Shown one piece after another: positions 1-25,145 of a stretch of DNA of 64,000 bases. The notes beneath the pieces were generated by a model that worked only from the letters and a program-made list of their open reading frames with translations, made no database searches and had not been told where the DNA came from. Position 1 is the stretch's first letter. Each line of letters starts with the position of its first letter. Source of the DNA: a virus (Duplodnaviria > Heunggongvirae > Uroviricota > Caudoviricetes); the IMG/VR virus record IMGVR_UViG_2721755721_000001. One strand, 5' to 3'. A program made the translations under genes and the position numbers.

Positions 1-384
1 TTATGCGCGTGGATATACTTTCCGGCTAATTCTGCAGCTTTCTGCGGCAAAAGTGCATTTTCGCTTTCCTGAGCCGCCAGCAGCTCATCAAAATCCTCAA
101 GCGTTTCTCGTCCCAGCGCAATTTCCGTGCGCAGTTTTTTCATTTCCTTTGAGACCACGCCCTGACTTTCACGAAACAGCGTGCGCCACTCCTCATTCAG
201 TGTGTTCGTCGTGGCTTCCATTTCAGCGCGACGCTGGCGGATTGTCGCAATATTATCCGCTGCCGCTTTCTGCTGACGACGTGCTTCAAGCCATGCGTTT
301 CTGGCTGTGTTCATGGTTTCCAGTGCCCGCTGCGTTACAGCCGGAAAAGTGGAAAGGTTGTTATTTACTGCGGTATTGTTCATG
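1..384 (-). CDS. hypothetical coiled-coil protein (127 aa) downstream of primase and ori
   Basis: Not in ORF track (window edge). ATG at 382-384 (minus) preceded by AGGAG; stop at 1-3; translation MNNTAVNNNLSTFPAVTQRALE... Confidence 0.5.
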
Positions 385-559
385 ACTTCTCCTGTCGGGT
401 TGGTTCGTTACGTCAATTGTGTCGTGGCTGACACAAGCACACTATCGGTGCTCAGTGTGTGGTGGCTGGCACAACGGGCGCTTGCGGTTATTCAGACGTG
501 GCTATGAAAGCCAGCCAGATAAAAATGCCCTCTGTTTCAGTCTGCTTTATGTCCCTGAT

Positions 560-755
560 GCGGTGGAACAGGTGAAACATGTGTTACAGCTTTGTTTTAT
601 AAGGCATTTATATACACTGCACCGGTGGAACATCGCGGGTAACAAGGTGAAACAGCGGATTGGCTGGCGTTACATCTGTTCCACCTCACTATTTCAGAAG
701 GTGGAACAGGTTCAGCCCTGTAAAATACGGTTGTTCCACCTGTTTCACCTGTTAC
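560..755. repeat. Iteron cluster, about 8 copies of GGTG(G/A)AACA in both orientations; putative satellite replication origin
   Basis: Repeated ggtggaaca / ggtgaaaca and inverse tgttccacc / tgtttcacc in the 400-bp gap just downstream of the primase gene; P4 ori/crr lie at the equivalent position and carry short repeats bound by alpha. Confidence 0.6.
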
Positions 756-783
756 CCTTAATAAATAAGACTCACGCAAAGCC

Positions 784-3456
784 TTAACCCGGCACCTCGC
801 TGTTGAAGACATAGAGCCTGCGGGGATTCATCTCTGGCGGGCGAATGGTTGTCTGGAGTTTGCCATCAGTGGAGGGCAGCAGGTATCCACGATCTGCGCA
901 CAGACGCGCCACCTTGCGCGGGTCAAATCCCCTGCAGATTTCTTTCCAGCCGGACGGCATGACATAGAACGTAGTGACAGCTTCCGTGCCCTGCGCGGTA
1001 CTGCCTTTCTCCACCCTTCGCCAGCCCACCATATTGCCGGGGCGGTTGCGCTCGTCATACCAGTCTGCAAAGCGGCTGTACTGATTCGCGGTAAAGAAAC
1101 TGCGAACCTGCTCCAGTGCGGCGATATCTTCCTGATTGGCGGTGTGCCCGCGATCTTTCAGCCATGCGTTCAGGCAGACGCGGGTTGCCCGCAGTGCTTC
1201 ACCCTCAGGCCAGCCGGTGATACCCAGACGGGTTGCCAGTTCACCTGCCATCGCCACCAGTGCAAAGCGGTTCACAGCCCGGCCCACCTGATTGCCTGCA
1301 TCTTTCGGAGTCAGGGCGGCAGCATATTCCTTCATCAGCGATTTTGCCTGTGCCGTTAGTCCGTTAAGATCAGCGGTCAGTGCTTTCAGCCACTCCCGGA
1401 ACGGCGAACCGTAGTAGCAGGACGTGGCCCATTCAAGATGCTCTGCCAGAGCCTTGCCGCTGTCGAAGCCGTGCAGCTCCTCAAAAACGCCAAACTTCCC
1501 GGAATCGCTGGGGATCTGGATCATCCTGACTTCCATCCCGGCAAAAGTACGCTCACCGGCCTTTGCCGCATGTTCGGTCAGAGACAATTCGCCAGTTGAA
1601 AAGAACAACAGGCGCCACTGCTTACGGGTACGCAGCTCACCGTCCGTACCGGCACGGCCCTTGCCCTGACCGTTTGCCAGCATGTAGGCGATATTGCCTG
1701 CCTCGCGTCCGTCAACTTCCCGGATCTCATCAAGCATCATGGCGGCATCGTTGCGGCGGCTGGCGCATCCCTCCAGTGCGTTGCCGGTGGCCCGCCATGT
1801 CTGCCAGTAGTCAGGCCCGCCGCAGACGGAGGTTGCTGCTTTCATGGTGGTGGTCTTACCGTCTGTCGATTCCCCTTTGAGGTGGTAGCCGCCGCCGTCC
1901 ATACCAACCAGCCGTAACAGTGGTGCAGCAAAGGCCAGGCTGACAGCAAATGCCACGCGGGAGTTGCCGGTACAGTAGCGGGATACATGCTCCCGCCATT
2001 CCTCTGTTGTGCCCGACACGCGGAAATCACGCCCCTGCACGGAAGTGGTCTGGAGAATGACACCCTCTGCACCTTCACCGCTGACCTCATCCTGCAGGAC
2101 GTAAACCTGACCATGCCAGCCAGTACGACTGACGCAGGTCACGCGGCGTTCCGGTTTACACAGTGAGATATATTCCATCAGGCGTGCGCGTGCCTCACCG
2201 GTGGTGCTGATATAAGACAGCCCGTTAACCAGCAGTACCCGGCGCAGTTCCTCACCACTGCCGCTCAGCATTTCCATCGGCATCGCCCAGCGGCGACACT
2301 CACCCCACGTATCTTCCCATTCCAGCAGTCGTCCGAAGTTACCGCCATCGGCATCGCAGGTGATTGCCGTCACGCGCAGCGGGCTGCATATTTTGACGTT
2401 CTGGATCTCCGTCTCACCGTTGCGCTGTACCTGCTTTTCATACCAGAGATATTCCTGGGTAAGACGGAACCCGTGCGGCAGTTGCGTGCGGCTTTCCCCG
2501 CAGAGTACCAGACCGTTGCGAAAGGCTTCACGGGCACGGGTAATACCGTGCTCCCGATGAAAGTCATTCCAGTCAGCCTTAATCTCTTCTGGTGGCAGCG
2601 TCATCCAGCCGCCAACAGCTTTTGCCGCCCGTTCAGCAAAGGCTCTGCCGGGATTCTCACCCCCGTCCTGAAAATCGTTATCACCGGCGATGATAATTTT
2701 TACCTCAGGCCAGCGTGCCCGCAGCGACTGCGCCACATTGGGCAGGTTGCCCGCAGATATGGCAGCCACTACGCATCCGGCAGTGAGCTGGCTTACCGTC
2801 AGCGCCGTAGCGTAACCTTCGGTAATCACCACCTGTATCGGTGGTTCAGACGGTAACGGGCTGAGCGACACAAACGCGCCTTTCATCGTGCTGCCGGGCA
2901 GTATGCTTTTTTCACCCGTCGGGGCGATAAGCTGTGCACCGGTCACGGCTCCGGTGTTGGTCGTGAGTGGTAACAGCAGGGAACCGGCAGGAAAATCCTT
3001 ACCGCTGATATGCTGTACGCTTCCGGTCAGAGAGGCCGGGTATCCGGCGAACCCTTTTCCTGTCAGATAGGCGCTTTCTCCCGTGTGGCTCTCTTTCATC
3101 AGCGCCGCCACGGTAAGACCCATGTCGCGTTTAGGGGCTTTTTGTCTGGCAGGCTTAACAGGCAGTTCCTGCATATCCGGCACATTAAGCACCTGCGCCA
3201 CCTCCTGCGCAGCCTTTCTGACGTTGTAACCGGTTACGAGCTTAACCAGATCCAGACCGTCACCATTGCCACACTGGCTGCAGATCCACGTCCCGCGCCC
3301 GTCAAGGTCATCAAGGCGAAAACGATCCTTGCCCCCACATTTCGGGCAGGGACCGTGCCTGCCGTTTTCAGGTACATCAATACGCAGCATCTGCAGAATA
3401 ACGGGCCATTTCCCCCGTGCGGCGGCTGAAACCTGCGTAACCGTCTGTATTGTCAT
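784..3456 (-). CDS. P4 alpha-like DNA primase-helicase (890 aa)
   Basis: N-terminal zinc finger CPKCGGKDRFR...CSQCG, TOPRIM-like ITEGYATALTV/IIIAGDND, Walker A GESTDGKTT in C-terminal helicase part. Confidence 0.85.
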   Translation of the reverse strand: MTIQTVTQVSAAARGKWPVILQMLRIDVPENGRHGPCPKCGGKDRFRLDDLDGRGTWICSQCGNGDGLDLVKLVTGYNVRKAAQEVAQVLNVPDMQELPVKPARQKAPKRDMGLTVAALMKESHTGESAYLTGKGFAGYPASLTGSVQHISGKDFPAGSLLLPLTTNTGAVTGAQLIAPTGEKSILPGSTMKGAFVSLSPLPSEPPIQVVITEGYATALTVSQLTAGCVVAAISAGNLPNVAQSLRARWPEVKIIIAGDNDFQDGGENPGRAFAERAAKAVGGWMTLPPEEIKADWNDFHREHGITRAREAFRNGLVLCGESRTQLPHGFRLTQEYLWYEKQVQRNGETEIQNVKICSPLRVTAITCDADGGNFGRLLEWEDTWGECRRWAMPMEMLSGSGEELRRVLLVNGLSYISTTGEARARLMEYISLCKPERRVTCVSRTGWHGQVYVLQDEVSGEGAEGVILQTTSVQGRDFRVSGTTEEWREHVSRYCTGNSRVAFAVSLAFAAPLLRLVGMDGGGYHLKGESTDGKTTTMKAATSVCGGPDYWQTWRATGNALEGCASRRNDAAMMLDEIREVDGREAGNIAYMLANGQGKGRAGTDGELRTRKQWRLLFFSTGELSLTEHAAKAGERTFAGMEVRMIQIPSDSGKFGVFEELHGFDSGKALAEHLEWATSCYYGSPFREWLKALTADLNGLTAQAKSLMKEYAAALTPKDAGNQVGRAVNRFALVAMAGELATRLGITGWPEGEALRATRVCLNAWLKDRGHTANQEDIAALEQVRSFFTANQYSRFADWYDERNRPGNMVGWRRVEKGSTAQGTEAVTTFYVMPSGWKEICRGFDPRKVARLCADRGYLLPSTDGKLQTTIRPPEMNPRRLYVFNSEVPG

Positions 3457-3836
3457 ACTTCCCCCTCATACAACGTCACACCGGTACTGCAGAAGTCATC
3501 AAATGCCGCCGGAAGCGTGCGGTACATCTCCGCCATCACTTCACAGCCGCGCGCGGTCAGTACCGGCGGCGCGGTCAGCAGTGACGGCTCCAGCATGTCA
3601 GTCAGCAGTGCCAGCGCGGCAGCGGCGCCCTGCACTTCGCCGTACTCGTTAATCAGTACGCACTCGATATGCAGCGCAATGGCCATTTCAATACGCTCCA
3701 CCGTCAGGCTGTGCGGACCATACTGATCACTGCCAGTTTCGTTCAGCATTTTCTGCCGCCATGCTGAAGCAATAGCCCGCCGGTAAAGCGCGGTGGTCAT
3801 TTCTACCGGGAAAATGGAAACCTGCGGCTGGTTCAT
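3453..3836 (-). CDS. hypothetical protein (127 aa), satellite early operon
   Basis: ORF overlaps the primase start by 4 bp (translational coupling). Confidence 0.5.
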   Translation of the reverse strand: MNQPQVSIFPVEMTTALYRRAIASAWRQKMLNETGSDQYGPHSLTVERIEMAIALHIECVLINEYGEVQGAAAALALLTDMLEPSLLTAPPVLTARGCEVMAEMYRTLPAAFDDFCSTGVTLYEGEV

Positions 3837-4117
3837 CTGGCACCTCCTTCAATCAGTGCGCAGCTGTGTGCAATATCCGTCAAATCTGCCAGCAGGTACT
3901 CCATCAGCGCGGCGACACCAGGCGCACAGCCTGCGTCCAGTGCTCCGGCCTGAGACGGGTATTCAGAAAAGAGAAGCTGGAGCATGTCGCAGGCATTTCT
4001 TGCGCGGGTCAGCTTTCCGAAACTGTCCTCTGACAACCCATAGGCAAAAGCACCGGTATTGTGTTTTTCAGGCAAAGTGTGGCCCTGAGCACCGTTGTGC
4101 CCGTTTGAAATATTCAT
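3833..4117 (-). CDS. hypothetical protein (94 aa)
   Basis: ORF overlaps downstream gene by 4 bp, same operon. Confidence 0.45.
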   Translation of the reverse strand: MNISNGHNGAQGHTLPEKHNTGAFAYGLSEDSFGKLTRARNACDMLQLLFSEYPSQAGALDAGCAPGVAALMEYLLADLTDIAHSCALIEGGAR

Positions 4118-4148
4118 CGTGGATTACTCCGTTTTCAGCGGTATTTTG

Positions 4149-4538
4149 TCAGAGAAACTTTGAATAGTGACCGTCGTCAGGCTCAGCAGAACGCCGTATG
4201 CTACGCTCCCGCCAGCGGATAAATAGCACAGACGGATGCAGTGTCAGCGGGCCGGAACCACTACCGCCAGCAGGAGCTGGTGCAGGCTTCAAGAGCGGTA
4301 CATCAAACAGGCGCGTATACCGCTGTTCAAACCATGCCAGAGGGCAGGAAGAAAGCTTGTTGTCGCTGTCATGACGTATCAGCACTTCACAGCTGAATTC
4401 AGGATTAACCAGCGCCACAGAGGGCGAGGCTTCTATTAATCGGATAATCGTGACCGTCCAGCCACGTTCATGCTGCCAGCGTTCGCCGGGGTGCGGATAA
4501 TTACGCATGTTCACCTCCGCAGGGAATGCGCCCGGCAA
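4149..4538 (-). CDS. hypothetical protein (about 120-129 aa, start uncertain)
   Basis: ORF in operon orientation; overlaps the Icd-like gene. Confidence 0.4.
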   Translation of the reverse strand: MPGAFPAEVNMRNYPHPGERWQHERGWTVTIIRLIEASPSVALVNPEFSCEVLIRHDSDNKLSSCPLAWFEQRYTRLFDVPLLKPAPAPAGGSGSGPLTLHPSVLFIRWRERSIRRSAEPDDGHYSKFL

Positions 4539-4677
4539 AGCTCAGTACATAGTCCGGGGCAAGTCTGCGCCGCGCTGATCGTTCGTTATCTGCGGTGATC
4601 CTTAACATCACAGGACGGGCATTGCGTTGACTGCGGTTGATCGCCGCAAATAACCAGGTACACTTCTGTTTAGCCAT
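4501..4677 (-). CDS. Icd-like cell-division-inhibitor family small protein
   Basis: MAKQKCTWLFAAINRSQRNARPVMLRITADNERSARRRLAPDY... resembles P4-family Icd-like proteins; start placed at the internal MAKQK. Confidence 0.55.
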   Translation of the reverse strand: MAKQKCTWLFAAINRSQRNARPVMLRITADNERSARRRLAPDYVLSFAGRIPCGGEHA

Positions 4678-4793
4678 CTTCGTTACCTCATATAACGTGC
4701 TGGTCAGACGCCTCGGTGCTGCTGCAAACACTCCGGGGCGTTGCTATTTTGTTTTTCTGTGTGTAATGTGTCATTACACATAAATACATTACA

Positions 4794-4988
4794 ATGGGTG
4801 TAATTGACGTGTCAACACACAAAAATGAAAGACGTGGGAATCCGCCATTCCAGTTCCGACTTGACCCTGAACTGCGTGAACTGATGGAACAAGCACAACA
4901 GCAGGATGGCGATGAATCGCTAGCGGCTTGGATCAAGCGCATTCTACGCAAAGAGTTACAAAGCCGAGGTTTAGAACCAAAGAATTGA
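4794..4988 (+). CDS. small hypothetical protein (64 aa), divergent from the early operon
   Basis: ORF only; basic C-terminus. Confidence 0.3.
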   Translation: MGVIDVSTHKNERRGNPPFQFRLDPELRELMEQAQQQDGDESLAAWIKRILRKELQSRGLEPKN

Positions 4989-5037
4989 TTAATACGTTGG
5001 GGAGGCTTTTTTCTCCCCAGCTTTGTTAATATTGTCA

Positions 5038-5253
5038 TTACACTACTTCCTCCAATCCTGCTGATTGAGCTTTAACCCACTGCCTAATTTCTTGTGCATC
5101 GTAAACAGATACCCGTTTTGAAATGCGTATAGATTTGGGAAATTCAGGATTGTTCTTTTCCCAGCGCCAGAGAGTAACCGTACTTATTTGCAAAAAGTCA
5201 GCAGTAGCTCGTGGGCGGGCATGTCCAGTGATAGGATAAGTTTTTAATGTCAT
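5038..5253 (-). CDS. alpA: AlpA-family phage regulatory protein (HTH)
   Basis: MTLKTYPITGHARPRATADFLQISTVTLWRWEKNNPEFPKSIRISKRVSVYDAQEIRQWV - typical AlpA/Vis-type HTH. Confidence 0.8.
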   Translation of the reverse strand: MTLKTYPITGHARPRATADFLQISTVTLWRWEKNNPEFPKSIRISKRVSVYDAQEIRQWVKAQSAGLEEVV

Positions 5254-5355
5254 GAAATTACCTGCCGTATTATGTAATGAACACGGCAGATACTATGGGG
5301 ATATCAAAATGCTGTGAAGGTAGTGTAATCAACTCTACCTGTAGATTGTTTCAGT

Positions 5356-6237
5356 CTACCCCTTTTGTTTTAATCCCGCATGATTAACCGCTAATCGTAA
5401 TTTTCTTAAGATTTCTTGTTCATTAGTGATAAATATTGGAGGTAGCTCTCCTAAATGTTTAATTATGGCGTTAGTCCACTTTTCAGGACTTATCTCTTTT
5501 CTTTCACCACGACATTCGCTTGGGTATTTTGCTAATATATATATGGCTGCATTTAATAACCCCTCCCTATTTTTTGCATGATGCTCAGCAGTGTTATTTA
5601 ATCGCTTGGGGATTTTAGGTTCAGATGAAATTCTTTTCGTAAGTAAACTTGGCATAGGAATTCCAGTTTTTACTGATTTCCATATTAACTCTAAATCTCT
5701 TCGCATGATAAGAAGATCTTCAAATGGAATCTTAATTACCTTATTTCCTTCATATGAGGCCGTTGCCATCAAAACATTATCTCGTATTTTTACCGGTTTA
5801 AGCCTGAATTCATAATCTGGATCTATAGCTAATCCATTTTTTATGTCACTTATCATATCATCGGCGTACCAAATACCACAGGCAAATCCTATAATTTGAA
5901 GCCCATTTTCAAAATGTTCAAAGGAATCATCTTTAAGGTCATACCATATTGTTGAAAATTCCATCTCTAGTGATTGATTAGTTAATACGGGATGAATTAA
6001 GTCAATTTCCATTTTCTGATTTTTATTGAGGAAATTAACATTAAATCTAACTGCAAGTCCATCCGCCTTGAATGCGATATTAAAAGCGCCTATTTCGTAT
6101 AGATGTAATAAATCATCAATCTCGCATTCTAATAGTCTTGAAGCGCGTTCAAATGAACAATATTCTAATGGTGGTATTTTTTTGTCAATCCATAGATTTC
6201 CTAAGAATATAGTTTCATTCTCTGTTGAATGCTGCAT
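5356..6237 (-). CDS. hypothetical AT-rich cargo protein (293 aa) between integrase and alpA
   Basis: Long ORF with AGAGG Shine-Dalgarno; markedly AT-rich versus flanks; no motif recognised. Confidence 0.65.
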   Translation of the reverse strand: MQHSTENETIFLGNLWIDKKIPPLEYCSFERASRLLECEIDDLLHLYEIGAFNIAFKADGLAVRFNVNFLNKNQKMEIDLIHPVLTNQSLEMEFSTIWYDLKDDSFEHFENGLQIIGFACGIWYADDMISDIKNGLAIDPDYEFRLKPVKIRDNVLMATASYEGNKVIKIPFEDLLIMRRDLELIWKSVKTGIPMPSLLTKRISSEPKIPKRLNNTAEHHAKNREGLLNAAIYILAKYPSECRGERKEISPEKWTNAIIKHLGELPPIFITNEQEILRKLRLAVNHAGLKQKG

Positions 6238-6267
6238 TATGACCTCTGTTTTAAATTATAAGAGTAT

Positions 6268-7554
6268 TTAATTGATAATGTTAATACCTGATAAGTCATA
6301 AGGAGCATGGAATTCGTCCTTATTTAGTTCCAGATAATTAGACCACCATTGCATCATTCTGCGGCGTTCCTGCATGTGCTGCGCAAGATGCACATATGCT
6401 GCCCGCACTTCGTTTCTTTCTTGGTGACTCATCTGCCGTTCAACTGCATCGCGTGACCAGAGTCCTGATTCGGTCAGTGCAGAGCAGGCCATCGCCCTGA
6501 ACCCATGCAAGCAAACATCAGTTTGAGTGTCGTAACCCATCGTTCGCAGTGCTTTATTAACTGTGTTTTCGCTCATCGGTTTATATGGGTTGCTGTCACC
6601 GGGAAAAACCAGCAGATATTCACCACTGATTTTCCTTATATCCTCCAGTACCCCGATAGCCTGACTAGATAGCGGGACATAATGAGCAGCCCCCATCTTT
6701 GCACCCCGATCTGAGAATTTAACCCCTGCGATCTCTTCACGTTGTCCTGGTATCGTCCATAGCCCATTTTCAATGTCGATCTCCTCCCATCTGGCATGTC
6801 GTAGTTCGCTGGATCGCACAAAAGTGTGCAGGGAAAAGAGAACTGCTAGGCGAGTCAATGGTCTTCCCGTGTAACTTCTCGTTTTCGCTAACAGTTCAGG
6901 TAAACGTTCGAGAGGTAGTGCGGGGCGATGTCGTACTTTGGGGGCCGTAATTGCACCTTTTAGATCGTGGGCAGGGTTGTAATCGACAATTCCACGTTGC
7001 ACGGCATAACGGAAGATGCTCGTCATAGTGGTTTTTACACGGCTCGTTGTGGCACCAATTCCTTTCTCAGTCATCTCAACCAGCATCGGCATCAAGTCAC
7101 GGGTTTTGAGCGTATCGATAGGCTTTGAACCGATGGCAGGAAAGAGGTGGTTTTCCATTTCTCGGAGAATTTTTTTACGGGTGATCTCTTTCCACTCAGG
7201 ATGCCCCATCGTTCCACTATGCCACTCTCTGGCAACACTCTCGAACGTGGGGGAAATTGGGTCTTCCTTTTTGGGTTTCTTTGCTTCGCGAGGATCACGA
7301 CCATCGGCTAGTAGTTGCCTGGCTTCATCACGCCGTTTCCGCGCTGTTGCAAGTGAGACATCTGGGTAGACCCCTAATGCCAATGTCACTTGTTTTCCAT
7401 CAAAACGATAATTCATACGCCAGTATTTTCCACCAGTCTTTCGTACCAGTAGATACAAACTCCCTCCATCGGTAAGTTTGTAATCATTGGTCTTCGGCTT
7501 GGCGTTTTCTATCTGTTTGGGGGAAAGCACATTAATGGCCATATCTGTACTCAT
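6268..7554 (-). CDS. int: P4-type tyrosine integrase (start uncertain, ORF extends to 7602)
   Basis: N-terminus LSPKQIENAKPKTNDYKLTDGGSLYLLVRKTGGKYWRMNYR typical of P4-family integrases; C-terminal catalytic region with HGFR...Y. Confidence 0.85.
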   Translation of the reverse strand: MSTDMAINVLSPKQIENAKPKTNDYKLTDGGSLYLLVRKTGGKYWRMNYRFDGKQVTLALGVYPDVSLATARKRRDEARQLLADGRDPREAKKPKKEDPISPTFESVAREWHSGTMGHPEWKEITRKKILREMENHLFPAIGSKPIDTLKTRDLMPMLVEMTEKGIGATTSRVKTTMTSIFRYAVQRGIVDYNPAHDLKGAITAPKVRHRPALPLERLPELLAKTRSYTGRPLTRLAVLFSLHTFVRSSELRHARWEEIDIENGLWTIPGQREEIAGVKFSDRGAKMGAAHYVPLSSQAIGVLEDIRKISGEYLLVFPGDSNPYKPMSENTVNKALRTMGYDTQTDVCLHGFRAMACSALTESGLWSRDAVERQMSHQERNEVRAAYVHLAQHMQERRRMMQWWSNYLELNKDEFHAPYDLSGINIIN

Positions 7555-7814
7555 TTTGGTAAATTGATGGTATCTGCATATCGAACTGGGGAATACCATC
7601 ACTTATACCATCACGAGGTTGTAATGTCATGAAATTAACTGAAATGAAAATCAGGCCGATTCGGTGATAACTTACTGTTTTTTTAAGTGGTTATGTAATG
7701 AAGTGAAATGTAGAGAAAGGTCTTTAAAGTGTCCCCTGCAGACATCTACTTGAGGCAGCAGGGGATTGATTGGAATGGTGTTTTTTAGGTGTGAGAAATA
7801 TTTTACCCGCTATT

Positions 7815-8015
7815 TTACCCATTGGCGCGGCTTAAGAGCTTATTTTTGAATTCACAATGGTCACGATATAACCATCTTGCTCGACCGTGGATAACTTTGG
7901 CTTTTGGCAGGTCGCCGGACTTAATCCGGTCGTAGATGAAGGTTTTACCAAAGCCAGTATCGGCCATGATGAATTTCAAATCAACCAGTGAATCAGGTTG
8001 TAGTTCGTGTTGCAT
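7815..8015 (-). CDS. xis: excisionase / AlpA-like HTH DNA-binding protein (66 aa)
   Basis: Small basic HTH protein directly upstream of the integrase, GGAGA Shine-Dalgarno. Confidence 0.6.
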   Translation of the reverse strand: MQHELQPDSLVDLKFIMADTGFGKTFIYDRIKSGDLPKAKVIHGRARWLYRDHCEFKNKLLSRANG

Positions 8016-8057
8016 GAGTGCTATCTCCGAATAGGGAATCGAACCTGCAAATCAGGC

Positions 8058-8090
8058 AAGAAAAAACCGCCATCAGGCGGCTTGGTGTTC
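8058..8090 (-). terminator. rho-independent terminator (minus strand)
   Basis: Minus-strand GCCGCCTGATGGCGG hairpin followed by a T-run. Confidence 0.5.
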
Positions 8091-8146
8091 TTTCAGTTCT
8101 TCAATTCGAATATTGGTTACATTGTTTTCATATATGAATAAATAAA

Positions 8147-8359
8147 TTAGCTTTTTTCGTTGCCTTCGCGTTCTTTATTAATTTTGACAAAATCGTTTTT
8201 ACCACGCTCTCCAAATGCGTCTTTAGAGTCGTTGTATCCGCAATCGCAGCACACATAATCATCAGACCATCCACGCATTGTTTTTTCTTTTGCAATATTT
8301 CCAGAACCGCATTTTGGACAAGACATATCACTACCTCCAAAGCATGAGAGAGATGACAA
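8147..8359 (-). CDS. zinc-ribbon small protein (70 aa)
   Basis: CPKCGSG...CCDCG paired Cys motifs. Confidence 0.5.
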   Translation of the reverse strand: MSSLSCFGGSDMSCPKCGSGNIAKEKTMRGWSDDYVCCDCGYNDSKDAFGERGKNDFVKINKEREGNEKS

Positions 8360-8422
8360 CGTAACATTGATTGGAGATTAACAATAGATTGCTGATGTAA
8401 AAGATATGTATAAGCTTAGCTA

Positions 8423-8797
8423 TCAAAGGGGAGGCTCTGGTAGCGGCATCCAGTGTGACGGTTTCCACGACGCACCAGGAATTATCCACCCATCATTAGC
8501 GTCAGGATGCCCCGGGATGTAAGTCGCCCATTTCATTCGCCAGTCACCTTTCCTGTCAAACTCCCTGGCAACAAGAACGGCTGTTTTGGTATCCGGCATT
8601 CGCTCACTACAGCTTATCCAACCATCAGGAGTTACCGGAGAGTTGCCGGGTTCTTTAATGTGCAAGCGAGGCTCACCATCTTTTGGCTCAGGCCACTGGC
8701 GCTCCATGTTGATCTTCAATTTATCTTCCATAGCAGCGGTAATTTCAGCATCGCTGATGCCAGCACGGCGCTGTGCATCCCACAACAGGAAATGCAT
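8423..8797 (-). CDS. lambdoid early-left hypothetical protein (DUF551-like)
   Basis: ORF in the early-left operon; separated in-frame from the upstream ORF by a single TAG. Confidence 0.5.
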   Translation of the reverse strand: MHFLLWDAQRRAGISDAEITAAMEDKLKINMERQWPEPKDGEPRLHIKEPGNSPVTPDGWISCSERMPDTKTAVLVAREFDRKGDWRMKWATYIPGHPDANDGWIIPGASWKPSHWMPLPEPPL

Positions 8798-8806
8798 ATC
8801 AGCCCA

Positions 8807-9052
8807 CTAGCTGAGATCGTCTGGTTCGGCTGCGGCTTCCAGAGCCTCTTTTGAGAGGTGTTTCAGTGGACCAATGGGGCCAACGCAGCCAAATGTGGAG
8901 TCAGACCATTTGGCATGCTCGTGGCGAATCAGTTCGCGTTCCAGTGATGCCAGTGCAATTCGTGCCAGTTCCATTTGTTCGCCACGAGTAAGCCCGTTTT
9001 CAAGCGGATTTTTAATGAACAATTCAATACGTTCTTTGGTAATAGTGGTCAT
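8807..9052 (-). CDS. hypothetical protein (81 aa)
   Basis: ORF in the early-left operon. Confidence 0.4.
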   Translation of the reverse strand: MTTITKERIELFIKNPLENGLTRGEQMELARIALASLERELIRHEHAKWSDSTFGCVGPIGPLKHLSKEALEAAAEPDDLS

Positions 9053-9062
9053 TTGTTAGTCC

Positions 9063-9818
9063 TTAAACTGCTAGTTGCAATTGCATTTCAAAGCGGTCGC
9101 GTTGTTCACAATACGCAAGAGAACCAGGGCTATTGTGTGCCTCAATCCGTTCTACCATTAATGCTGCGCGTGTCTCTTTACTTGCAGGTGCATAAGCCCC
9201 AGACCAGGCTTTATCAATACCGATGTTTCGAGCGACGTTCGTACTATCTGCGCTGGCTAAGGGTAATTTTGTGAATATCAGCGGATTTAACATGCGCAAT
9301 CCATGTAGTTTCGTAACCGGCTGACCATGCCCATCAACAATGTGACGAATCAGGTCTTTCATTCTGGCTACCGCAAGAGTTGGGCGCTTTACGTCATAGT
9401 CGCCACAACTACCGATAGCCACTCGCGGAAACTCATTGCACAAATGAATAAATCGCGCGTCACTTTCATTCATGTGCCACACTGGAACGCCAGCTAGTTT
9501 TCCGTGAGGCCACTCATTCAGAAGCGCATCATTTTCCTCCTCTCCGCCATCAATAATATCCGGGATAATGGCAAAATCGAATCCTGGGTGATTCTTCCAG
9601 CGAGCAACAAACTCGTAGTAATCGCTCCAGTCGATTTTGTTTTTGCCAGCTGCTTTCCAGGCGGTGAATGCACCGTTGTCCAGCGCGAACGACTGACAGT
9701 ATTCAGCCGCGAGATTGATCTGGCCTGAATGCGCAAAACTGATAAACGCATGTCGCCCTTTCCATGCTCTCATTGCGCACGTATCAGGAGTAATAGGCCC
9801 ACCGTGGTAGTGAATCAT
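9063..9818 (-). CDS. hypothetical protein (251 aa); weak, unverified resemblance to TGT/DpdA-like transglycosylases
   Basis: Start at MIHYHGG with AAGGAG Shine-Dalgarno, coupled to the upstream stop; DNGAF motif. Confidence 0.55.
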   Translation of the reverse strand: MIHYHGGPITPDTCAMRAWKGRHAFISFAHSGQINLAAEYCQSFALDNGAFTAWKAAGKNKIDWSDYYEFVARWKNHPGFDFAIIPDIIDGGEEENDALLNEWPHGKLAGVPVWHMNESDARFIHLCNEFPRVAIGSCGDYDVKRPTLAVARMKDLIRHIVDGHGQPVTKLHGLRMLNPLIFTKLPLASADSTNVARNIGIDKAWSGAYAPASKETRAALMVERIEAHNSPGSLAYCEQRDRFEMQLQLAV

Positions 9819-9819
9819 C

Positions 9820-10227
9820 TCACTCTCCTTTGATGCGAATGCCAGTAGCGCGGATTGCATCGATGACTTCAGAAACTTTGTATGCCATTACCGTTTGGTA
9901 ATCATCGTGAAAATCTGTTCGATGAAGCATGCTGCTACGTTCCGGGAGCAGTATTTCCCGCGCTTCCAGTTCTGCAATGCGCTTTTTTGCTGCTTCCAGT
10001 TCATCCAGTAATTCCAGCACGGTAGCCGGATTAGCCTTGGCAACAAAATCCCGGACTGGCTTACAATCAATCTCCGCAATGGGTTGATACGATGTGTAGC
10101 CATGCTGTCTTGTATAACTACCGTGACGAATAACGAAAAAATCACCATTTATTTTTTTAGCCTGCCACTTATCTTCACCGGCTTTCTCTGCCGCTTCACG
10201 CAGTGCCTGAGAGTTAATTTCGCTCAC
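9820..10227 (-). CDS. Ead/Ea22-like protein
   Basis: Position and coiled-coil C-terminus typical of Ea22-like early proteins. Confidence 0.5.
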   Translation of the reverse strand: MSEINSQALREAAEKAGEDKWQAKKINGDFFVIRHGSYTRQHGYTSYQPIAEIDCKPVRDFVAKANPATVLELLDELEAAKKRIAELEAREILLPERSSMLHRTDFHDDYQTVMAYKVSEVIDAIRATGIRIKGE

Positions 10228-10445
10228 TTCGAACCTCTCTGTTTACTGATAAGCTCCAGATCCTCCTGGCAACTTGCACAAGTCCGACAACCCTGAACGG
10301 CCAAGCGTCTTCGTTCATCTATCGGATCGCCACACTCACAACAATGAGTGGCAGATATAGCCTGGTGGTTCAGGCGGCGCATTTTTATTGCTGTGCTGCG
10401 CTGTAATTCTTCAATTTCTGATGCTGAATCAATGATGTCTGCCAT
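10224..10445 (-). CDS. TraR/DksA-family zinc-finger protein
   Basis: CCECGDPIDERRR...CRTCASC four-Cys zinc finger. Confidence 0.6.
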   Translation of the reverse strand: MADIIDSASEIEELQRSTAIKMRRLNHQAISATHCCECGDPIDERRRLAVQGCRTCASCQEDLELISKQRGSK

Positions 10446-10543
10446 CTTTCATTAATCCCTGAATTGTTGGTTAATACGCTTGAGGGTAAATGCGAGCAAT
10501 AAAAAAGGAGCCTGTAGCTCCCTGATAATTTTGTTTTTCATGT

Positions 10544-10759
10544 TCATCGTTCCTTAAAGACGCCGTTTAACATGCCGATTGCCAGGCTTAAATGAGTCGG
10601 TGTGAATCCCATCAGCGTTACCGTTTCGCGGTGCTTCTTCAGTACGCCACGGCAAATGTCATCGACGTTTTTATCCGGAAACTGCTGTCTGGCTTTTTTG
10701 ATTTCAGAATTAGCCTGACGGGCAATACTGCGAAGGGCGTTTTCTTGCTGAGGTGTCAT
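10544..10759 (-). CDS. lambda orf61-like protein
   Basis: MTPQQENALRSIARQANSEIKKARQQFPDKNVDD... matches lambda early-left small ORF as recalled. Confidence 0.55.
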   Translation of the reverse strand: MTPQQENALRSIARQANSEIKKARQQFPDKNVDDICRGVLKKHRETVTLMGFTPTHLSLAIGMLNGVFKER

Positions 10760-10835
10760 TGAACAAGCCCCATGTCGGCAAGCATAAGCACACAGAATAT
10801 GAAGCCCGCTGCCAGAAAAATGCATTCAGTGGTTG

Positions 10836-11027
10836 TCATACCTGGTCTCTCTCATCTGCTTCTGCTTTCGCCACCATCATTTCCAGCTTTTGTGAAAGGG
10901 ATGTGGCTAACGTATGAAATTCTTCGTCTGTTTCTACTGGTATTGGCACAAACCTGACTCCAATTTGAGCAAGGCTATGTGCCATCTCAATGCTCGTTCT
11001 TAACTCAACAGGAGATGCTTTGTGCAT
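10836..11027 (-). CDS. lambda orf63-like protein
   Basis: Position between orf61 and orf60a, size 63 aa. Confidence 0.5.
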   Translation of the reverse strand: MHKASPVELRTSIEMAHSLAQIGVRFVPIPVETDEEFHTLATSLSQKLEMMVAKAEADERDQV

Positions 11028-11188
11028 ACAGCCCCTCGTTTATTATTTATCTCCTCAGCCAGCCGCTGGGCTTTCAGTGGATTTTGGATAACAGAAAGGT
11101 CGGGAAATACCCAGCCTCGCTTTGTAACGGAGTAGACGAAAGTGATCGCACCTACCCGGATATTATCGTGAGGATGCTTCATCGCCAT
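11000..11188 (-). CDS. lambda orf60a-like protein
   Basis: [29 protein letters not shown]..., immediately downstream of exo. Confidence 0.5.
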
Positions 11189-11859
11189 TGCTCCCCAAAT
11201 ACAAAACCAATTTCAGCCAGTGCCTCGTCCATTTTTTCGATGAACTCCGGCACCATCTCGTCAAAACCCGCCATGTACTTTTCATCCCGCTCAACCACGA
11301 CATAATGCAGTCCTTCACGCTTCATACGCGGGTCATAGTTGGCAAAGTACCAGGCATCTTTTCGCGTCACCCACATGCTGTACTGCACCTGGGCCATGTA
11401 AGCTGACTTTATGGCCTCGAAACCACCGAGCCGGAACTTCATGAAATCCCGGGAGGTAAACGGGCATTTCAGTTCAAGGCCGTTGCCGTCACTGCATAAA
11501 CCATCTGGAGAGCAGGCGGTACGCATACTTTCGTCGCGATAGATGATCGGTGATTCAGTAACATTCACGCCGGAAGTGAACTCAAACAGGGCTCTGGCGT
11601 CGTTCTCGTACTGTTTTCCCCAGGCCAGCGCTTTAGCGTTAACTTCCGGAGCCACACCGGTGCAAACCTCAGCAAGCAGGGTGTGGAAGTAGGACATTTT
11701 CATGTCAGGCCACTTTTTTCCGGAGCGGGGTTTTGCTATTACGTTATGAACTTCTGAAGCTGTGATGACGCCGAGCCGTAATTTGTGCCACGCATCATCC
11801 CCCTGTTCGACAGCTCTCACGTCGATCCCGGTACGCTGCAGGATAATGTCCGGTGTCAT
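11179..11859 (-). CDS. exo: lambda exonuclease (Red alpha)
   Basis: 226 aa, [40 protein letters not shown]... near-identical to lambda Exo. Confidence 0.95.
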
Positions 11860-12641
11860 GCTGCCACCTTCTGCTCAGTGGCTTTCTGTTTCAGGAATCC
11901 AAGAGCTTTCACTGCTTCGGCCTGTGTCAGTTCTGACGATGCGCGAATGTCGCGGCGAAATATCTGGGAACAGAGCGGCAATAAGTCGTCATCCCATGTT
12001 TTATCCAGGGCGATTAGCAGAGTGTTAATCTCCTGCATGGTTTCATCGTTAACCGGAGTGATGTCGCGTTCCGGCTGGCGTTCTGCAGTGTATGCAGTAT
12101 TTTCGACAATGCGCTCGGCTTCATCCTTGTCATAGATACCAGCAAATCCGAAGGCCAGACGGGCACACTGAATCATGGCTTTATGCCGTAACATCCGTTT
12201 AGGATGCGACTGCCACGGCCCCGTGATTTCTCTGCCTTCGCGAGTTTTGAATGGTTCGCGGCGGCATTCATCCATCCATTCGGTAACGCAGATCGGATGA
12301 TTACGGTCCTTGCGGTAAATCCGGCATGTACAGGATTCATTGTCCTGCTCAAAGTCCATGCCATCAAACTGCTGGTTTTCATTGATGATGCGGGACCAGC
12401 CATCAACGCCCACCACCGGAACGATGCCGTTCTGCTTATCAGGGAAGGCGTAAATTTCTTTCGTCCACGGATTAAGGCCGTACTGGTTGGCGACGATCAA
12501 CAATGCGATGAACTGCGCATCGCTGGCATCGCCTTTAAATGCCGTCTGGCGAAGAGTGGCGATCAGTTCCTGTGGGTCGACAGAATCCATGCCGACACGT
12601 TCAGCCAGCTTCCCTGCCAGCGTTGCGAGTGCTGTACTCAT
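11856..12641 (-). CDS. bet: lambda Bet (Red beta) single-strand annealing protein
   Basis: 261 aa, near-identical to lambda Bet. Confidence 0.95.
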
Positions 12642-12665
12642 CCGTTTTATACCTCTGAATCAATA

Positions 12666-13064
12666 TCAACCTGGATGGTGAGCAATGGTTTCAACCATGT
12701 ACCGGATGTGTTCTGCCATGCGCTCCTGAAACTCAACATCGTCATCAAACGCACGGGTAATGGCTTTTTTGCTGGCCCCGTGGCGTTGCAAATGATCGAT
12801 GCATAGCGATTCAAACAGGTGCTGGGGCAGGCCTTTTTCCATGTCGTCTGCCAGTTCTGCCTCTTTCTCTTCACGGGCGATCTGCTGGTAGTGACGCGCC
12901 CAGCTCTGAGCCTCAAGACGATCCTGAATGTAATAAGCGTTCATGGCTGAACTCCTGAAATAGCTGTGAAAATATCGCCCGCGAAATGCCAGGCTGATTA
13001 GGAAAACAGGAAAGGGGGTTAGTGAATGCTTTTGCTTGATCTCAGTTTCAGCATTAATATCCAT
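12666..13064 (-). CDS. gam: lambda Gam, C-terminus altered by apparent 1-bp insertion
   Basis: [22 protein letters not shown]... matches lambda Gam; ends ...IAHHPG while the -1 frame (12647-12670) encodes QVDIDSEV-stop. Confidence 0.85.
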
Positions 13065-13162
13065 TTTTTATAAGCGTCGACGGCTTCACGAAACATCTTT
13101 TCATCGCCAATAAAAGTGGCGATAGTGAATTTAGTCTGGATAGCCATAAGTGTTTGATCCAT
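13019..13162 (-). CDS. kil: lambda Kil
   Basis: [36 protein letters not shown]... Confidence 0.75.
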
Positions 13163-13295
13163 TCTTTGGGACTCCTGGCTGATTAAGTATGTCGATAAGG
13201 CGTTTCCATCCGTCACGTAATTTACGGGTGATTCGTTCAAGTAAAGATTCGGAAGGGCAGCCAGCAACAGGCCACCCTGCAATGGCATATTGCAT
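13131..13295 (-). CDS. cIII: lambda CIII (FtsH inhibitor)
   Basis: [54 protein letters not shown]. Confidence 0.85.
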   Translation of the reverse strand: MQYAIAGWPVAGCPSESLLERITRKLRDGWKRLIDILNQPGVPKNGSNTYGYPD

Positions 13296-13367
13296 GGTGT
13301 GCTCCTTATTTATACATAACGAAAAACGCCTCGAGTGAAGCGTTATTGGTATGCGGTAAAGCCGCAC

Positions 13368-13736
13368 TCAGGCGGCCTTGATAGTCATATCATCTGAATC
13401 AAATATTCCTGATGTATCGATATCGGTAATTCTTATTCCTTCGCTACCATCCATTGGAGGCCATCCTTCCTGACCATTTCCATCATTCCAGTCGAACTCA
13501 CACACAACACCATATGCATTTAAGTCGCTTGAAATTGCTATAAGCAGAGCATGTTGCGCCAGCATGATTAATACAGCATTTAATACAGAGCCGTGTTTAT
13601 TGAGTCGGTATTCAGAGTCTGACCAGAAATTATTAATCTGGTGAAGTTTTTCCTCTGTCATTACGTCATGGTCGATTTCAATTTCTATTGATGCTTTCCA
13701 GTCGTAATCAATGATGTATTTTTTGATGTTTGACAT
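13368..13736 (-). CDS. ea10: lambda Ea10
   Basis: 122 aa, MSNIKKYIIDYDWKASIEIEIDHDV... Confidence 0.8.
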   Translation of the reverse strand: MSNIKKYIIDYDWKASIEIEIDHDVMTEEKLHQINNFWSDSEYRLNKHGSVLNAVLIMLAQHALLIAISSDLNAYGVVCEFDWNDGNGQEGWPPMDGSEGIRITDIDTSGIFDSDDMTIKAA

Positions 13737-13916
13737 CTGTTCATATCCTCATAGATAAAAAATCGCCCTCACACTGGAGGGCAAAGAAGATTTCCAATAA
13801 TCAGAACAAGTCGGCTCCTGTTTAGTTACGAGCGACATTGCTCCGTGTATTCACTCGTTGGAATGAATACACAGTGCTGTGTTTATTCTGTTGTTTATGC
13901 CAAAAATAAAGGCCGA

Positions 13917-14540
13917 CTATGCGGCCTCGGAAGGAAGTCCAATCATCTTATTCAAATCTTCTACCCGTAAAGCAGGAAGTGCTGTACTTGCTTTATCTGC
14001 TTCTTTTGGTAGCAATTCTTTGCTTTCAGGCCAAACTTCAATAAGTCGCTTAACTGTTGTTACTGAGTTCAAAGCAGCCCATACATTTGATTCGATATCC
14101 TTTTTCCTGGCTTCAAGTTTTTGTTGCAATGCGCAGATTTCATCAAACCTTTTTGTTATTTCGTGTTCTGCGTTAAACATGCATTTATCTCTGTTAGGAG
14201 TAGGGAGCAATATATCTTCGCCGTTACCGTCTTTTCCATATGAATACCAGCCAACCCTTCTGCCAGATACAGTCAGATAAATTGAAGTAGAACGAACATC
14301 GTATGAGTAAAATGAACATCCCATCTTTTCAAGTTCTTCACTTATAGCCATTAATCTGGATGATAACTGATCCACTTCTTCAGTTTTCTTTTTACCGCCA
14401 AACGCAACAACTCTGGCGTCAAGTGCAAGCCGGTTCTTTAACTTTGTTACTTCTTCAAGTTCGGTGAAAACCCCGGACTTAATTAAAGCGTTACGAGCGA
14501 TATCCTCTTTCATTCTCGTAGTTAAGCGGATTGATGACAT
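13917..14540 (-). CDS. hypothetical protein (about 207 aa) in the ral/sieB slot between ea10 and N
   Basis: Start at MSSIRLTTRM with GAGAGG Shine-Dalgarno; no motif recognised. Confidence 0.55.
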   Translation of the reverse strand: MSSIRLTTRMKEDIARNALIKSGVFTELEEVTKLKNRLALDARVVAFGGKKKTEEVDQLSSRLMAISEELEKMGCSFYSYDVRSTSIYLTVSGRRVGWYSYGKDGNGEDILLPTPNRDKCMFNAEHEITKRFDEICALQQKLEARKKDIESNVWAALNSVTTVKRLIEVWPESKELLPKEADKASTALPALRVEDLNKMIGLPSEAA

Positions 14541-14601
14541 ATTAATTCCTCTCAAATAAGTGGTTTGCTGCCTGATTTCATTTTCTGGTGACCAACACAA
14601 G

Positions 14602-14985
14602 TCATCTTGCTGTCAGTTGTTTTGATTTCCGGTAGCCTGCCGCGTAAATGGCTACGTTTGGAAGACATACACCAGTTTCTGGTTGCTTATGTCCAAACTC
14701 ATTCGCGTACACAATGGCCGCTCGCTCCAGATTGCGTCTGTATTCTTTCTGTTGCCAGATCACGTCCTGTGCCATGAACTTAATTGGCTTAGCGTCTTCT
14801 ATGCGCTCAGGCGTTTCGTGAGTACCTTTAGCCTGAATCTGCGCTCTGCTTAGAGTAGGGCGGTGTAATACTTCTGAACTTATTGCTTCTTCGCGGGCCA
14901 GTACGCCGTTAGCTAATGCCTTTGCCTTTAAACGCTCACGACGACGAGAACGTGAATTGCCTTTGAACTGAGTTCTGCGTGTCAT
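14602..14985 (-). CDS. N-like transcription antiterminator (arginine-rich N-terminus)
   Basis: MTRRTQFKGNSRSRRRERLKAKALANG... arginine-rich motif; first gene leftward of the immunity region. Confidence 0.6.
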   Translation of the reverse strand: MTRRTQFKGNSRSRRRERLKAKALANGVLAREEAISSEVLHRPTLSRAQIQAKGTHETPERIEDAKPIKFMAQDVIWQQKEYRRNLERAAIVYANEFGHKQPETGVCLPNVAIYAAGYRKSKQLTAR

Positions 14986-15454
14986 ATAGACCTCCTGATG
15001 AACTTTGGTGGTGTGGTAGGTGGGAGACCCATTTCGACCTGTTTCGGCCTACTTCAATTCGGCAATAGTCCCGCAGGCCTCGCCGCTTTACGTGCGACAT
15101 ATTCCCGTCCATGAACCCTTCACCACACCCCAAAGTTCACTTTGGTTATTGCGCTTTGTCAGCGCCGTAGATTCATATTCGAATCGTTGTATATTCACCG
15201 CCCTGGTGAGTAATGCGTCCTGCTGACGACGATAATAATGAACCAATAGTTCGACATTATTAAGAACTATTGGTACGAATTTTGGTGATTTATTAACTCT
15301 ACGAAGTATGATTCTGATATATAAGGAAATTTATTTTTGAAAATGTGGCTGATGAAGGTTATGCGGCAGGGATCATAACTGCATGGTTTAGCGAGTTACA
15401 TCAACAAATACAATTGGTTATGGTGTTTTTAGGTGGGGGATCGAGAGGCAAAGA

Positions 15455-15485
15455 AAACCCGGCTCGGTGGCCGGGGTTAGATTTT
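15455..15485 (-). terminator. rho-independent terminator downstream of the 341-aa gene
   Basis: Minus-strand CCCGGC-cacc-gaGCCGGG hairpin followed by TTTTCTTT, directly after the stop at 15489. Confidence 0.55.
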
Positions 15486-15488
15486 CTG

Positions 15489-16514
15489 TTATGGGCGAGT
15501 GATGGTTGATGCGTTTCCGTTTTCTATTACACCTGCTCGTATCGTGTAGCTTCCCAAGATTTTTACTGTCCTGTTTTCTTTCATTGCATCAAACAGTATG
15601 GCGATCTCGTCTTTATCATCTATGAACGACGTGTCCACCGAAACAGGGAAACTGTCTTCACTAGATGGTTCGCGGCAGCTTAGGGTTATCTTTTCCGCAG
15701 TACGCTTGATTCCATCAATGACTAATTCAAGGTTTCTTTCTTCTTTTTTTGCTTTTTCGATAGGGTTCTTGATTAGTTCGTGGATTTCTTTGTTAGACAG
15801 TTCAACTGTGCTTGCGCCTGATATGACAATTTTGTCAGCATCAGACGCGCCTTTTAATACCCCTGTATACGCTTTTGCAGTATGCTCTTGAATCCCTTCG
15901 GCGCGCTCTACTGCATCTATGCCCGCTTTAGCTCTAATCGCCTCAAGCATTCCGTCCCTTAATATCGTCATGCGCTCGTTTTCTGATTTAATCTTGGCTT
16001 CTTCGAGCTTTGTTTCTTCTTGCTTGACTTCTACTTCGGCTTTTTTCTCTAAGTATGATGTACCAACCCATGCACCGCCTATAACGGTGACAGCAAACAA
16101 GAAGCATAATGTTTTTTGGCTAGGACTCATACCGTGTGTTACCTTCTCAAAGGCTTTACCGAATGCTTCAAAAAGCTTTGTTAATGCAGCAAGTATATCA
16201 GTACAACCTTCATTAATGGTAAAGATGATCTCTGCTTCCTCTTTATCTTTACCAGTTAACCTTTGAAGGTTGTCAGTTTTATATTTTATTAGTGTGAAAA
16301 CTTTATAAATTTCAGTCTGAAATTCGCATAAACCCTGAGCTAGAGGAGATGGAAGCGTTCCGTTGTAGCGAGAAGGATCACCATAAATCTTAAAATTCAC
16401 ATTATTGAAGAGGTCTAACTTGATCCTGTCGATAGTGATCTCTTCGCCACCATCTAACCTTGCAAACAAAGATTCAATGTCGTCCAGACTTGAAACATTA
16501 ATAATATCTTTCAT
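15489..16514 (-). CDS. unassigned membrane-anchored protein (341 aa) in the rexAB position downstream of cI
   Basis: GAAGGTG Shine-Dalgarno; AT-rich; one predicted TM helix (LCFLFAVTVIGGAWVGTSYL) then K/E-rich coiled coil; no motif recognised. Confidence 0.7.
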   Translation of the reverse strand: MKDIINVSSLDDIESLFARLDGGEEITIDRIKLDLFNNVNFKIYGDPSRYNGTLPSPLAQGLCEFQTEIYKVFTLIKYKTDNLQRLTGKDKEEAEIIFTINEGCTDILAALTKLFEAFGKAFEKVTHGMSPSQKTLCFLFAVTVIGGAWVGTSYLEKKAEVEVKQEETKLEEAKIKSENERMTILRDGMLEAIRAKAGIDAVERAEGIQEHTAKAYTGVLKGASDADKIVISGASTVELSNKEIHELIKNPIEKAKKEERNLELVIDGIKRTAEKITLSCREPSSEDSFPVSVDTSFIDDKDEIAILFDAMKENRTVKILGSYTIRAGVIENGNASTITRP

Positions 16515-24995: not shown

Positions 24996-25145
24996 GCGTT
25001 TTTTACATGTCATTGATGAGCTCAATAACCTGCCGCCGAGTAGTTTTTATGCTCTGAATTGTATTTGTGTAGTAAACATGCTGACTGCAATGTAATAGAG
25101 TTTTTTTAGCCTGTAACCTCTTGACGGCATTGAATTGCTTTTGTT

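Follow-up and report, generated by a model that had tools for sequence, protein, structure and literature searches.

Very probable tandem arrangement of a P4-like satellite and a lambdoid prophage at argW, with a hybrid att core between an excisionase gene and an integrase gene

Described systems related to the locus

Tandem accretion at one tRNA gene is known for genomic islands, prophage arrays and associations of the CIME-ICE type, and the integration site of P4 is leuX. In the int-xis cassette of lambda, the excisionase gene is located directly upstream of the integrase gene, on the same strand and at the end of the PL operon, and attP lies beyond the 3' end of int. P4-like satellites have been described by Moura de Sousa and Rocha (2021, PMC8628076), and the recombination module shared by KplE1 (CPS-53), HK620 and Sf6 by Panis, Mejean and Ansaldi (PMC2951348, PMC3509656). 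A 16-nt core, CTGCAGGGGACACCAT, is present in duplicate at the borders of KplE1 (PMC2951348), a prophage whose gene series begins with intS and ends with torI (PMC3509656). Arm-type sites of IntS are located in the attL region and overlap the intS promoter (PMC2951348). The two papers together describe conservation of the module among argW-integrating phages, which include HK620, Sf6, and CUS-3 (PMC2951348, PMC3509656). The annotation of the HK620 record places the attP core between int and hkaC (equal to TorI), with attP repeats on both sides. Since attP lies between int and the RDF (excisionase) gene in the free phage, the two genes come to lie at opposite ends of the prophage.

Here, we analysed a window of 64,000 nt, by which we mean the whole stretch of DNA. 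An earlier note had placed a P4-type integrase between an AlpA/primase module on its 3' side and an xis-like gene with a lambda-like early-left operon on its 5' side. This layout was borne out by the ORF map and domain scans, with all of these genes on the minus strand. The best explanation, which we consider correct with a probability of roughly 92%, is that two independent integrative elements lie in tandem at the 3' end of argW, encoding tRNA-Arg(CCU): a P4-like satellite at 1-7741 and a lambdoid prophage extending from 7742 to beyond 64000. As in described cases of tandem accretion, one attB would be common to two elements, and the middle one of three att copies would have one arm from each. 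The locus differs from those cases in that the two integrases are only 30% identical, and in that the segments of identity overlap by 13 nt and diverge in opposite directions, on the ATG side for IntS and on the GAATCGAA side for the satellite. The right end of the array, namely argW and the argW-proximal att copy, lies outside the window and was inferred from relatives.

A P4-like satellite with its own integrase and AlpA

Positions 1-7741 are the argW-proximal (integrase-proximal) two-thirds of a P4-like satellite with its own integrase and AlpA. They were 100% identical to positions 8001-15741 of a locus from strain Z1323HEC0108 (L001), where the satellite is present alone and directly adjoins a tRNA-Arg gene followed by yfdC. 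The anticodon of this tRNA gene predicted by ARAGORN is CCT, which identifies it as argW. The gene order of the satellite in L001 is two cargo genes, an ogr/Delta-like gene, psu, a sid-like gene, the primase gene, small genes, AlpA, a 293-aa ORF, and the integrase gene, which ends the series 187 nt from the 3' end of argW. In this and two other loci (L001, L002, and L004), RefSeq names a 'phage polarity suppression protein' and an 'ogr/Delta-like zinc finger'; these names are annotation only and refer to genes beyond the window start. Of the capsid-hijacking genes psu, delta, and sid, only the first 383 nt of the sid-like gene are within the window. This 5' part (1-383, minus strand), cut by the window start, is covered by a CDS at 7640-8383 in L001, is called 'septation initiation protein' or 'phage polarity suppression protein' in RefSeq, and matched no Pfam family. 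The satellite would be expected to continue upstream of position 1 with the remainder of the sid-like gene, psu, delta, and cargo, followed by TGGTGTCCC(C)TGCAGGAATCGAA next to csc or dsd genes.

The replication protein of the P4 alpha type (784-3456, minus strand) combines the Pfam domains Zn_Ribbon_Prim, Toprim_3, and DUF927, and was assigned to PHROG 1139, DNA primase (E = 1.8e-183). Next to it are a DUF5375 gene (3453-3836), recognized by Pfam, PHROG families, and the RefSeq annotation of the identical gene, as well as two hypothetical satellite genes (3833-4117 and 4149-4508) and an Icd-like gene (4501-4677) recognized by PHROG families and RefSeq, all on the minus strand. The AlpA-family regulator (5038-5253, minus strand; Pfam PF05930 Phage_AlpA, E = 1.6e-7) is a candidate for the satellite's own excision regulator or RDF. 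Between int and alpA lies an orphan ORF of 293 aa (5356-6237, minus strand) in a stretch of 36% G+C. It had zero matches in Pfam, NCBIfam, PHROGs, and PADLOC, and is satellite cargo.

The gene content thus resembles that of P4-like satellites in having a P4-type integrase gene by a tRNA gene, alpA, and an alpha-type primase gene, whose product is 38% identical to P4 alpha over its N-terminal third (37.7% over residues 6-322). Furthermore, genes annotated as psu, delta-like, and sid-like occur just past the window start in relatives whose shared part is identical to the window. On the other hand, the C-terminal half of the primase is DUF927 and gave no alignment with P4 alpha, the integration site here is argW, orphan cargo separates int from alpA, and no Rfam-known RNA was found in positions 1-9000 at permissive thresholds.

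The integrase ORF (6268-7602, minus strand) has the P4-type architecture of Arm-DNA-bind_3, Phage_int_M, and Phage_integrase domains in Pfam. The 444-aa integrase proposed earlier was retained as an ORF open to GTG 7602, but its start was revised. Translation from ATG 7542 (6268-7542, 424 aa) appears more likely because RefSeq annotates the identical gene in this way, and because residue 5 of the 424-aa form is where its alignment with IntS starts. Given that the gene lies inside the block 1-7741 and is found beside argW without the lambdoid in many genomes, its sequence context assigns it to the P4-like satellite. Searches with tblastn recovered no third integrase in the window.

The integrase-proximal att arm of the satellite (7543-7728) contains three copies of ATACCATCA, at 7565-7573 (minus strand), 7593-7601 (plus strand), and 7605-7613 (plus strand). 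No other match is present in the 64-kb window, for which the expected number was 0.42. Two further copies of the form TACCATCA are found 55-75 nt inside the distal end of the satellite in L001, L002, and L004. The repeats of the satellite arm probably represent arm-type binding sites, and the arm presumably also holds the integrase promoter. A sigma-70 consensus scan of 7500-8200 detected no promoter-like site, and neither the integrase nor the torI promoter was located by this means.

The hybrid att core and the lambdoid prophage

When window positions 1-12000 were compared by megablast with 5426 complete E. coli genomes, many genomes matched 1-7741 and ended there, and a few matched 1-8120. 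The satellite matches had 99-100% identity to the window and ended exactly at 7741, where the window and satellite-only sequence part after TGTCCCCTGCAG, which is the 3' end of the tRNA gene. We then used a 301-nt junction probe (7590-7890) against the same 5426 genomes. It was matched in full by 10 of them, which therefore have the same hybrid junction; K-12 MG1655 and most other genomes matched 7729-7890 only, which is annotated as torI; and satellite-only genomes matched 7590-7741 only, annotated as tRNA-Arg. The two blocks of identity overlap exactly at 7729-7741. According to a four-way alignment, the DNA to the left of these 13 nt is that of the satellite, and the DNA to the right is argW in satellite-only sequence and the attR arm of KplE1 in K-12, in the window, and in strain 44.

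These 13 nt, GTGTCCCCTGCAG, are the 3' end of argW, form the boundary of both elements, and make up a hybrid att core. In the 16-nt core of KplE1 they account for 13 nt, and in the 21-nt repeat of the satellite for the leftmost 13. Compared with the canonical 16-nt core, the core in the window (7726-7741) is identical at 14 of 16 positions, 13 of them contiguous, and the differing bases are at the outer edge. The segment of identity between satellite and attB is approximately 21 nt (GTGTCCCCTGCAGGAATCGAA) and reaches into the tRNA body, and the IntS core ATGGTGTCCCCTGCAG reaches the opposite way, into the CCA end, so that the 13 nt are common to both; the right half of the satellite core is GAATCGAA. 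In satellite-only genomes, (TG)GTGTCCC(C)TGCAGGAATCGAA is present at both ends of the satellite. Only the integrase-proximal copy is in the window, truncated to 13 nt.

The earlier note had found no tRNA gene, which agrees with our ARAGORN search of the whole window. It had also seen no convincing att repeats in 7603-7815, where an att fragment is in fact present at 7729-7741; ARAGORN and Rfam missed it because 13 nt are too short to be called as a tRNA. The suggested att site at the 3' end of the integrase gene did not hold either, as the core is located upstream of its 5' end. The search for direct repeats, including the candidate region 62376-62842, returned GTGTCCCCTGCAG at 7729-7741 as the sole exact copy in the window. 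The only other near-match was a 13-mer with one mismatch on the opposite strand (43789-43801), inside structural genes, and was taken as a chance occurrence.

The repeats on each side of the core are element-specific, with the satellite arm on one side and a TorI-side arm of the lambdoid, carrying repeats of the IntS type, on the other. The latter, the TorI-proximal attR arm (7742-7814), is 98% identical to the K-12 KplE1 attR and to the HK620 attP, and over 7729-8060, 19 phage genomes, with HK620, Sf6, and Kapi1 among them, share 97-98.5% identity with the window. The motif TATTTTACCC occurs at 7799-7808 and 7811-7820, the second copy entering the 3' end of torI. An attP repeat is annotated at the equivalent place in the HK620 record, and three copies of the motif are located upstream of intS in L003, L005, and L006 (K-12). 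We infer that the motif is the reported arm-type site of IntS.

The protein encoded by the xis-like gene (7815-8015, minus strand, 66 aa) is identical at 66/66 residues to PDB 1Z4H, 'Tor inhibition protein', and the gene is called torI in RefSeq. On sequence grounds, it is the TorI of a separate lambdoid with the recombination module of the KplE1/HK620/Sf6 type. The region upstream of torI (8022-8087, minus strand) contains a terminator-like hairpin at 8064-8083 and is conserved in K-12; it includes a stretch for which the HK620 annotation gives a cII-activated promoter ('phage integration') and in which 16 nt (8035-8050) copy the argW T-arm exactly. Farther upstream, an early-left (PL-type) operon (8128-14985, minus strand) is transcribed toward torI. 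Pfam matches to N_peptide, Gam, RecT, YqaJ, Ead_Ea22, and DUF551 were obtained for this operon, with genes for an Ea22-like protein (9820-10227), Exo/YqaJ (11179-11859), Bet/RecT (11856-12641), Gam (12666-13064), and N (14602-14985), all on the minus strand.

The lambdoid's own integrase gene, intS (62843-64000, minus strand, 385 aa), is at the other end of the window, with its ATG as the last three bases, and its product is identical to K-12 IntS at 381/385 residues (99%). The intS promoter, attL arm, and argW are beyond the window end. In L003, L005, and L006, intS is followed 161 nt on by tRNA-Arg(CCU) and then by yfdC, and the IntS-side 16-nt core is complete; this distance of 161 nt from intS to argW was found in every relative examined. 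The lambdoid in L003 has the tail region of this window together with the intS end, adjoining argW. The xis-like gene is thus seen without its integrase gene because IntS is encoded at the other prophage end. The apparent xis-int cassette arises because the hybrid junction has the same hkaC-attP-int order as the free phage, but with a different integrase. It resembles the lambda cassette in gene order, strand, and position at the end of the PL operon, but here two elements are involved and the att core is between the genes.

The lambdoid agrees with the KplE1/HK620/Sf6 module in the sequences of TorI (100%) and IntS (99%) relative to K-12, in a core derived from the 3' end of argW, and in having its int and RDF genes at opposite prophage ends. 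However, the module here is found in a large lambda-like phage whose tail region is of the J/Lom/tail-fibre type and whose early-left operon is N-gam-bet-exo, whereas KplE1 is reduced to a 10-kb remnant, and the podoviruses HK620 and Sf6 are P22-like. In addition, the outer flank of its attR is satellite DNA rather than chromosome, and the core has kept 14/16 positions. None of the 5426 genomes has this exact lambdoid; the best match covered 68% of window 7000-31000, in mosaic pieces.

Assembly of the array, alternative explanations, and significance

The outer limits of the array were examined by joining the satellite's outer flank, the core, and argW into a reconstructed empty attB. This sequence was found with 100% identity over all 604 nt, and a single match covered at least 80% of it in 1415 of the 5426 genomes. 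As the empty site exists, the outer limits of the array are precise. One of the 10 genomes with the same hybrid junction, the complete chromosome of strain 44, has the whole array, in the order csc, satellite, hybrid att, torI, a P22-like prophage, intS, tRNA-Arg, and yfdC.

We propose that the satellite would have integrated first, its own core copy reconstituting the 3' end of argW, and that the lambdoid would then have entered the rebuilt argW by a crossover inside GTGTCCCCTGCAG. Judging from the biochemistry of K-12 and HK620, IntS, TorI, and IHF would recombine 7729-7741 with the argW-proximal core approximately 160 nt past the window end. Beyond 64000, the IntS arm would be expected to have three TTTTACCC motifs, followed by ATGGTGTCCCCTGCAG leading into argW and then by yfdC. 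Excision of the lambdoid would restore the satellite-argW junction CTTTAAAGTGTCCCCTGCAGGAATCGAACC, and its attP would then read CTGATAAATGGTGTCCCCTGCAGACATCTAC. The lambdoid is predicted to excise, but its competence may be less than full, as the core in the window has retained only 14/16 positions. The satellite integrase would act on the satellite's own arms, for which the right half-core GAATCGAA would now be approximately 56 kb away.

The same architecture could have the opposite history, in which the lambdoid was resident and the satellite later entered the distal attR copy of the core. Integration order is unreadable from the junctions alone because both orders predict identical junction sequences, and in L007, the argW side of intS is occupied by another island, indicating accretion in the other order. 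Three observations nevertheless make the opposite history improbable for this locus. With a resident lambdoid, the full 21-nt target GTGTCCCCTGCAGGAATCGAA would be available only at the argW-proximal junction, the distal attR offering 13 nt, and integration there would result in another gene order. The same satellite with its distal junction (a CCC variant) occurs both alone and with at least three different lambdoids or P22-like phages, which fits a resident satellite and incoming phages. Finally, a junction of the intS arm, core, and distal satellite arm was found at coverage of at least 80% in 0 of 5426 genomes, compared with 10 for the observed junction. Partial matches to this reverse junction trace to the different island in L007.

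The first of two alternatives raised earlier was that the lambdoid uses this int/xis pair, with the satellite module as a neighbouring or tandem element. The tandem satellite was confirmed, and the shared use of int and xis was contradicted. A single composite element, in which the lambdoid would use the 6268-7602 integrase and the 7815-8015 xis in the lambda style and AlpA/primase would be cargo or a neighbour, could be argued from the adjacency of the two same-strand genes, which no predicted terminator separates, and from the cooperation of the two protein families in other elements. It is nonetheless very improbable, because across the 5426 genomes a sharp breakpoint falls between the two genes at 7729-7741, and the att core is upstream of the integrase gene rather than at its 3' end. 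Moreover, the cognate IntS of TorI is intact at 62843-64000, the satellite integrase travels with the satellite in genomes without the lambdoid, and xis occurs without this integrase in K-12, HK620, and Sf6. The second alternative, in which the integrase is part of the satellite and that of the lambdoid has been lost, was correct in its first part only. A stranded lambdoid remnant, with the satellite integrase as the sole recombinase of the region, has a negligible probability, as the full-length intS at 62843-64000 encodes a 385-aa protein 99% identical to the biochemically characterised K-12 enzyme and no point in its favour was left after testing.

The array at argW may also couple the two elements functionally, by read-through and by locking of the satellite, although we regard such coupling as doubtful. 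The satellite integrase gene is located 273 nt downstream of torI on the same strand, and both torI and the N-antiterminated operon point at it. A consensus scan, the only method used for this purpose, revealed no terminator-like site between the two genes. If coupling exists, lambdoid induction could transcribe the satellite integrase gene by read-through, mimicking the hkaC-attP-int transcript, and loss of the half-core GAATCGAA may lock the satellite until the lambdoid excises, resulting in hierarchical excision.

Both elements belong to well-described families, tandem accretion at tRNA genes is common, and 10 public genomes already have the hybrid junction. What has been resolved is therefore an ambiguity of annotation, and no new system is involved. 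It implies no new biology, and the idea of read-through and a locked satellite is a modest hypothesis. For annotation, an excisionase-like gene directly upstream of a same-strand integrase gene is not proof of a cassette, and in phages of the KplE1/HK620/Sf6 type, the cognate integrase should be looked for at the other prophage end. As illustrated by the 13-nt hybrid core, tandem arrays at tRNA genes conceal boundaries from tRNA finders, and correct boundaries matter for censuses of prophages and satellites and for predicting which element can excise.

argW-matching sequence at the junctions

Upstream of the lambdoid excisionase gene torI (7815-8015, minus strand) lies a second stretch matching argW, the tRNA-Arg(CCU) gene whose 3' end forms the att core (7729-7741). 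The copy, GGAATCGAACCTGCAA (8035-8050, within the context 8022-8087), matches argW exactly over 16 nt, and the matched part of the tRNA gene comes immediately after the core. Together, the core and the copy amount to 29 contiguous nt of argW, interrupted by a 293-nt segment comprising torI and the att arm. The copy follows a terminator-like hairpin (8064-8083, minus strand) and is separated from the torI ATG, downstream of it, by 20 nt; it is kept in the K-12 prophage KplE1 as well. In phage HK620, which has a related recombination module, the equivalent stretch is annotated as a cII-activated 'phage integration' promoter. The copy could be a remnant of a longer tRNA homology, or it could be a chance overlap with the promoter.

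The distal att repeat of the P4-like satellite was located in three E. coli loci (L001, 4129-4150; L002, 4313-4334; L004, 2129-2150). It has CCC in place of the CCCC of argW and of the empty site, and this variant is identical in tandem and satellite-only genomes. It derives either from the satellite attP or from a single common ancestral integration.

In E. coli S1-NGR-02-A (L007, 7119-32363), the same locus carries an array in the reversed order. A P22-like remnant with intS, the lambdoid integrase gene, is full of IS elements and adjoins a truncated dsdX. On the far side of intS is a CP4-44-like island with YeeU antitoxin, antirestriction, Ag43 and GTPase genes, and this island has the first 28 nt of the satellite distal arm in common. 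The L007 stretch covered stops short of argW.

Other features of the lambdoid prophage

A cargo region (60800-62842) is flanked by tail fibre genes on one side and intS on the other, and includes an ORF for an IS1 transposase at 61106-61609 and one for an NleH/OspG-like effector kinase at 61785-62375. The earlier note had suspected 62376-62842 as an att region; it carries no copy of the core, and the lambdoid relative at argW (L003) shows only pseudogene fragments there. In the early-left operon, immediately downstream of N, a gene on the minus strand (13917-14600) encodes a 227-aa protein with nucleotide modification associated domain 5 (Nmad5; E = 1e-71). At 25001-26000, G+C falls sharply to 36%, and GC and AT skew shift strongly.

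Replication and candidate cargo genes of the satellite

The satellite replication protein (784-3456, minus strand) resembles P4 alpha only over residues 6-322 (37.7% identity), while the matches of its C-terminal DUF927 half are to primase-helicases from unrelated phages and from small Pseudomonas elements. A 293-aa ORF (5356-6237, minus strand), flanked by the satellite integrase gene and alpA and lying in a stretch of 36% G+C, had no match in Pfam, NCBIfam, PHROGs or PADLOC. Most accessory genes of P4-like satellites occupy the int-psu and sid-alpA intervals (PMC8628076), whereas this ORF, which may be cargo of the satellite such as a defence gene, lies outside both.
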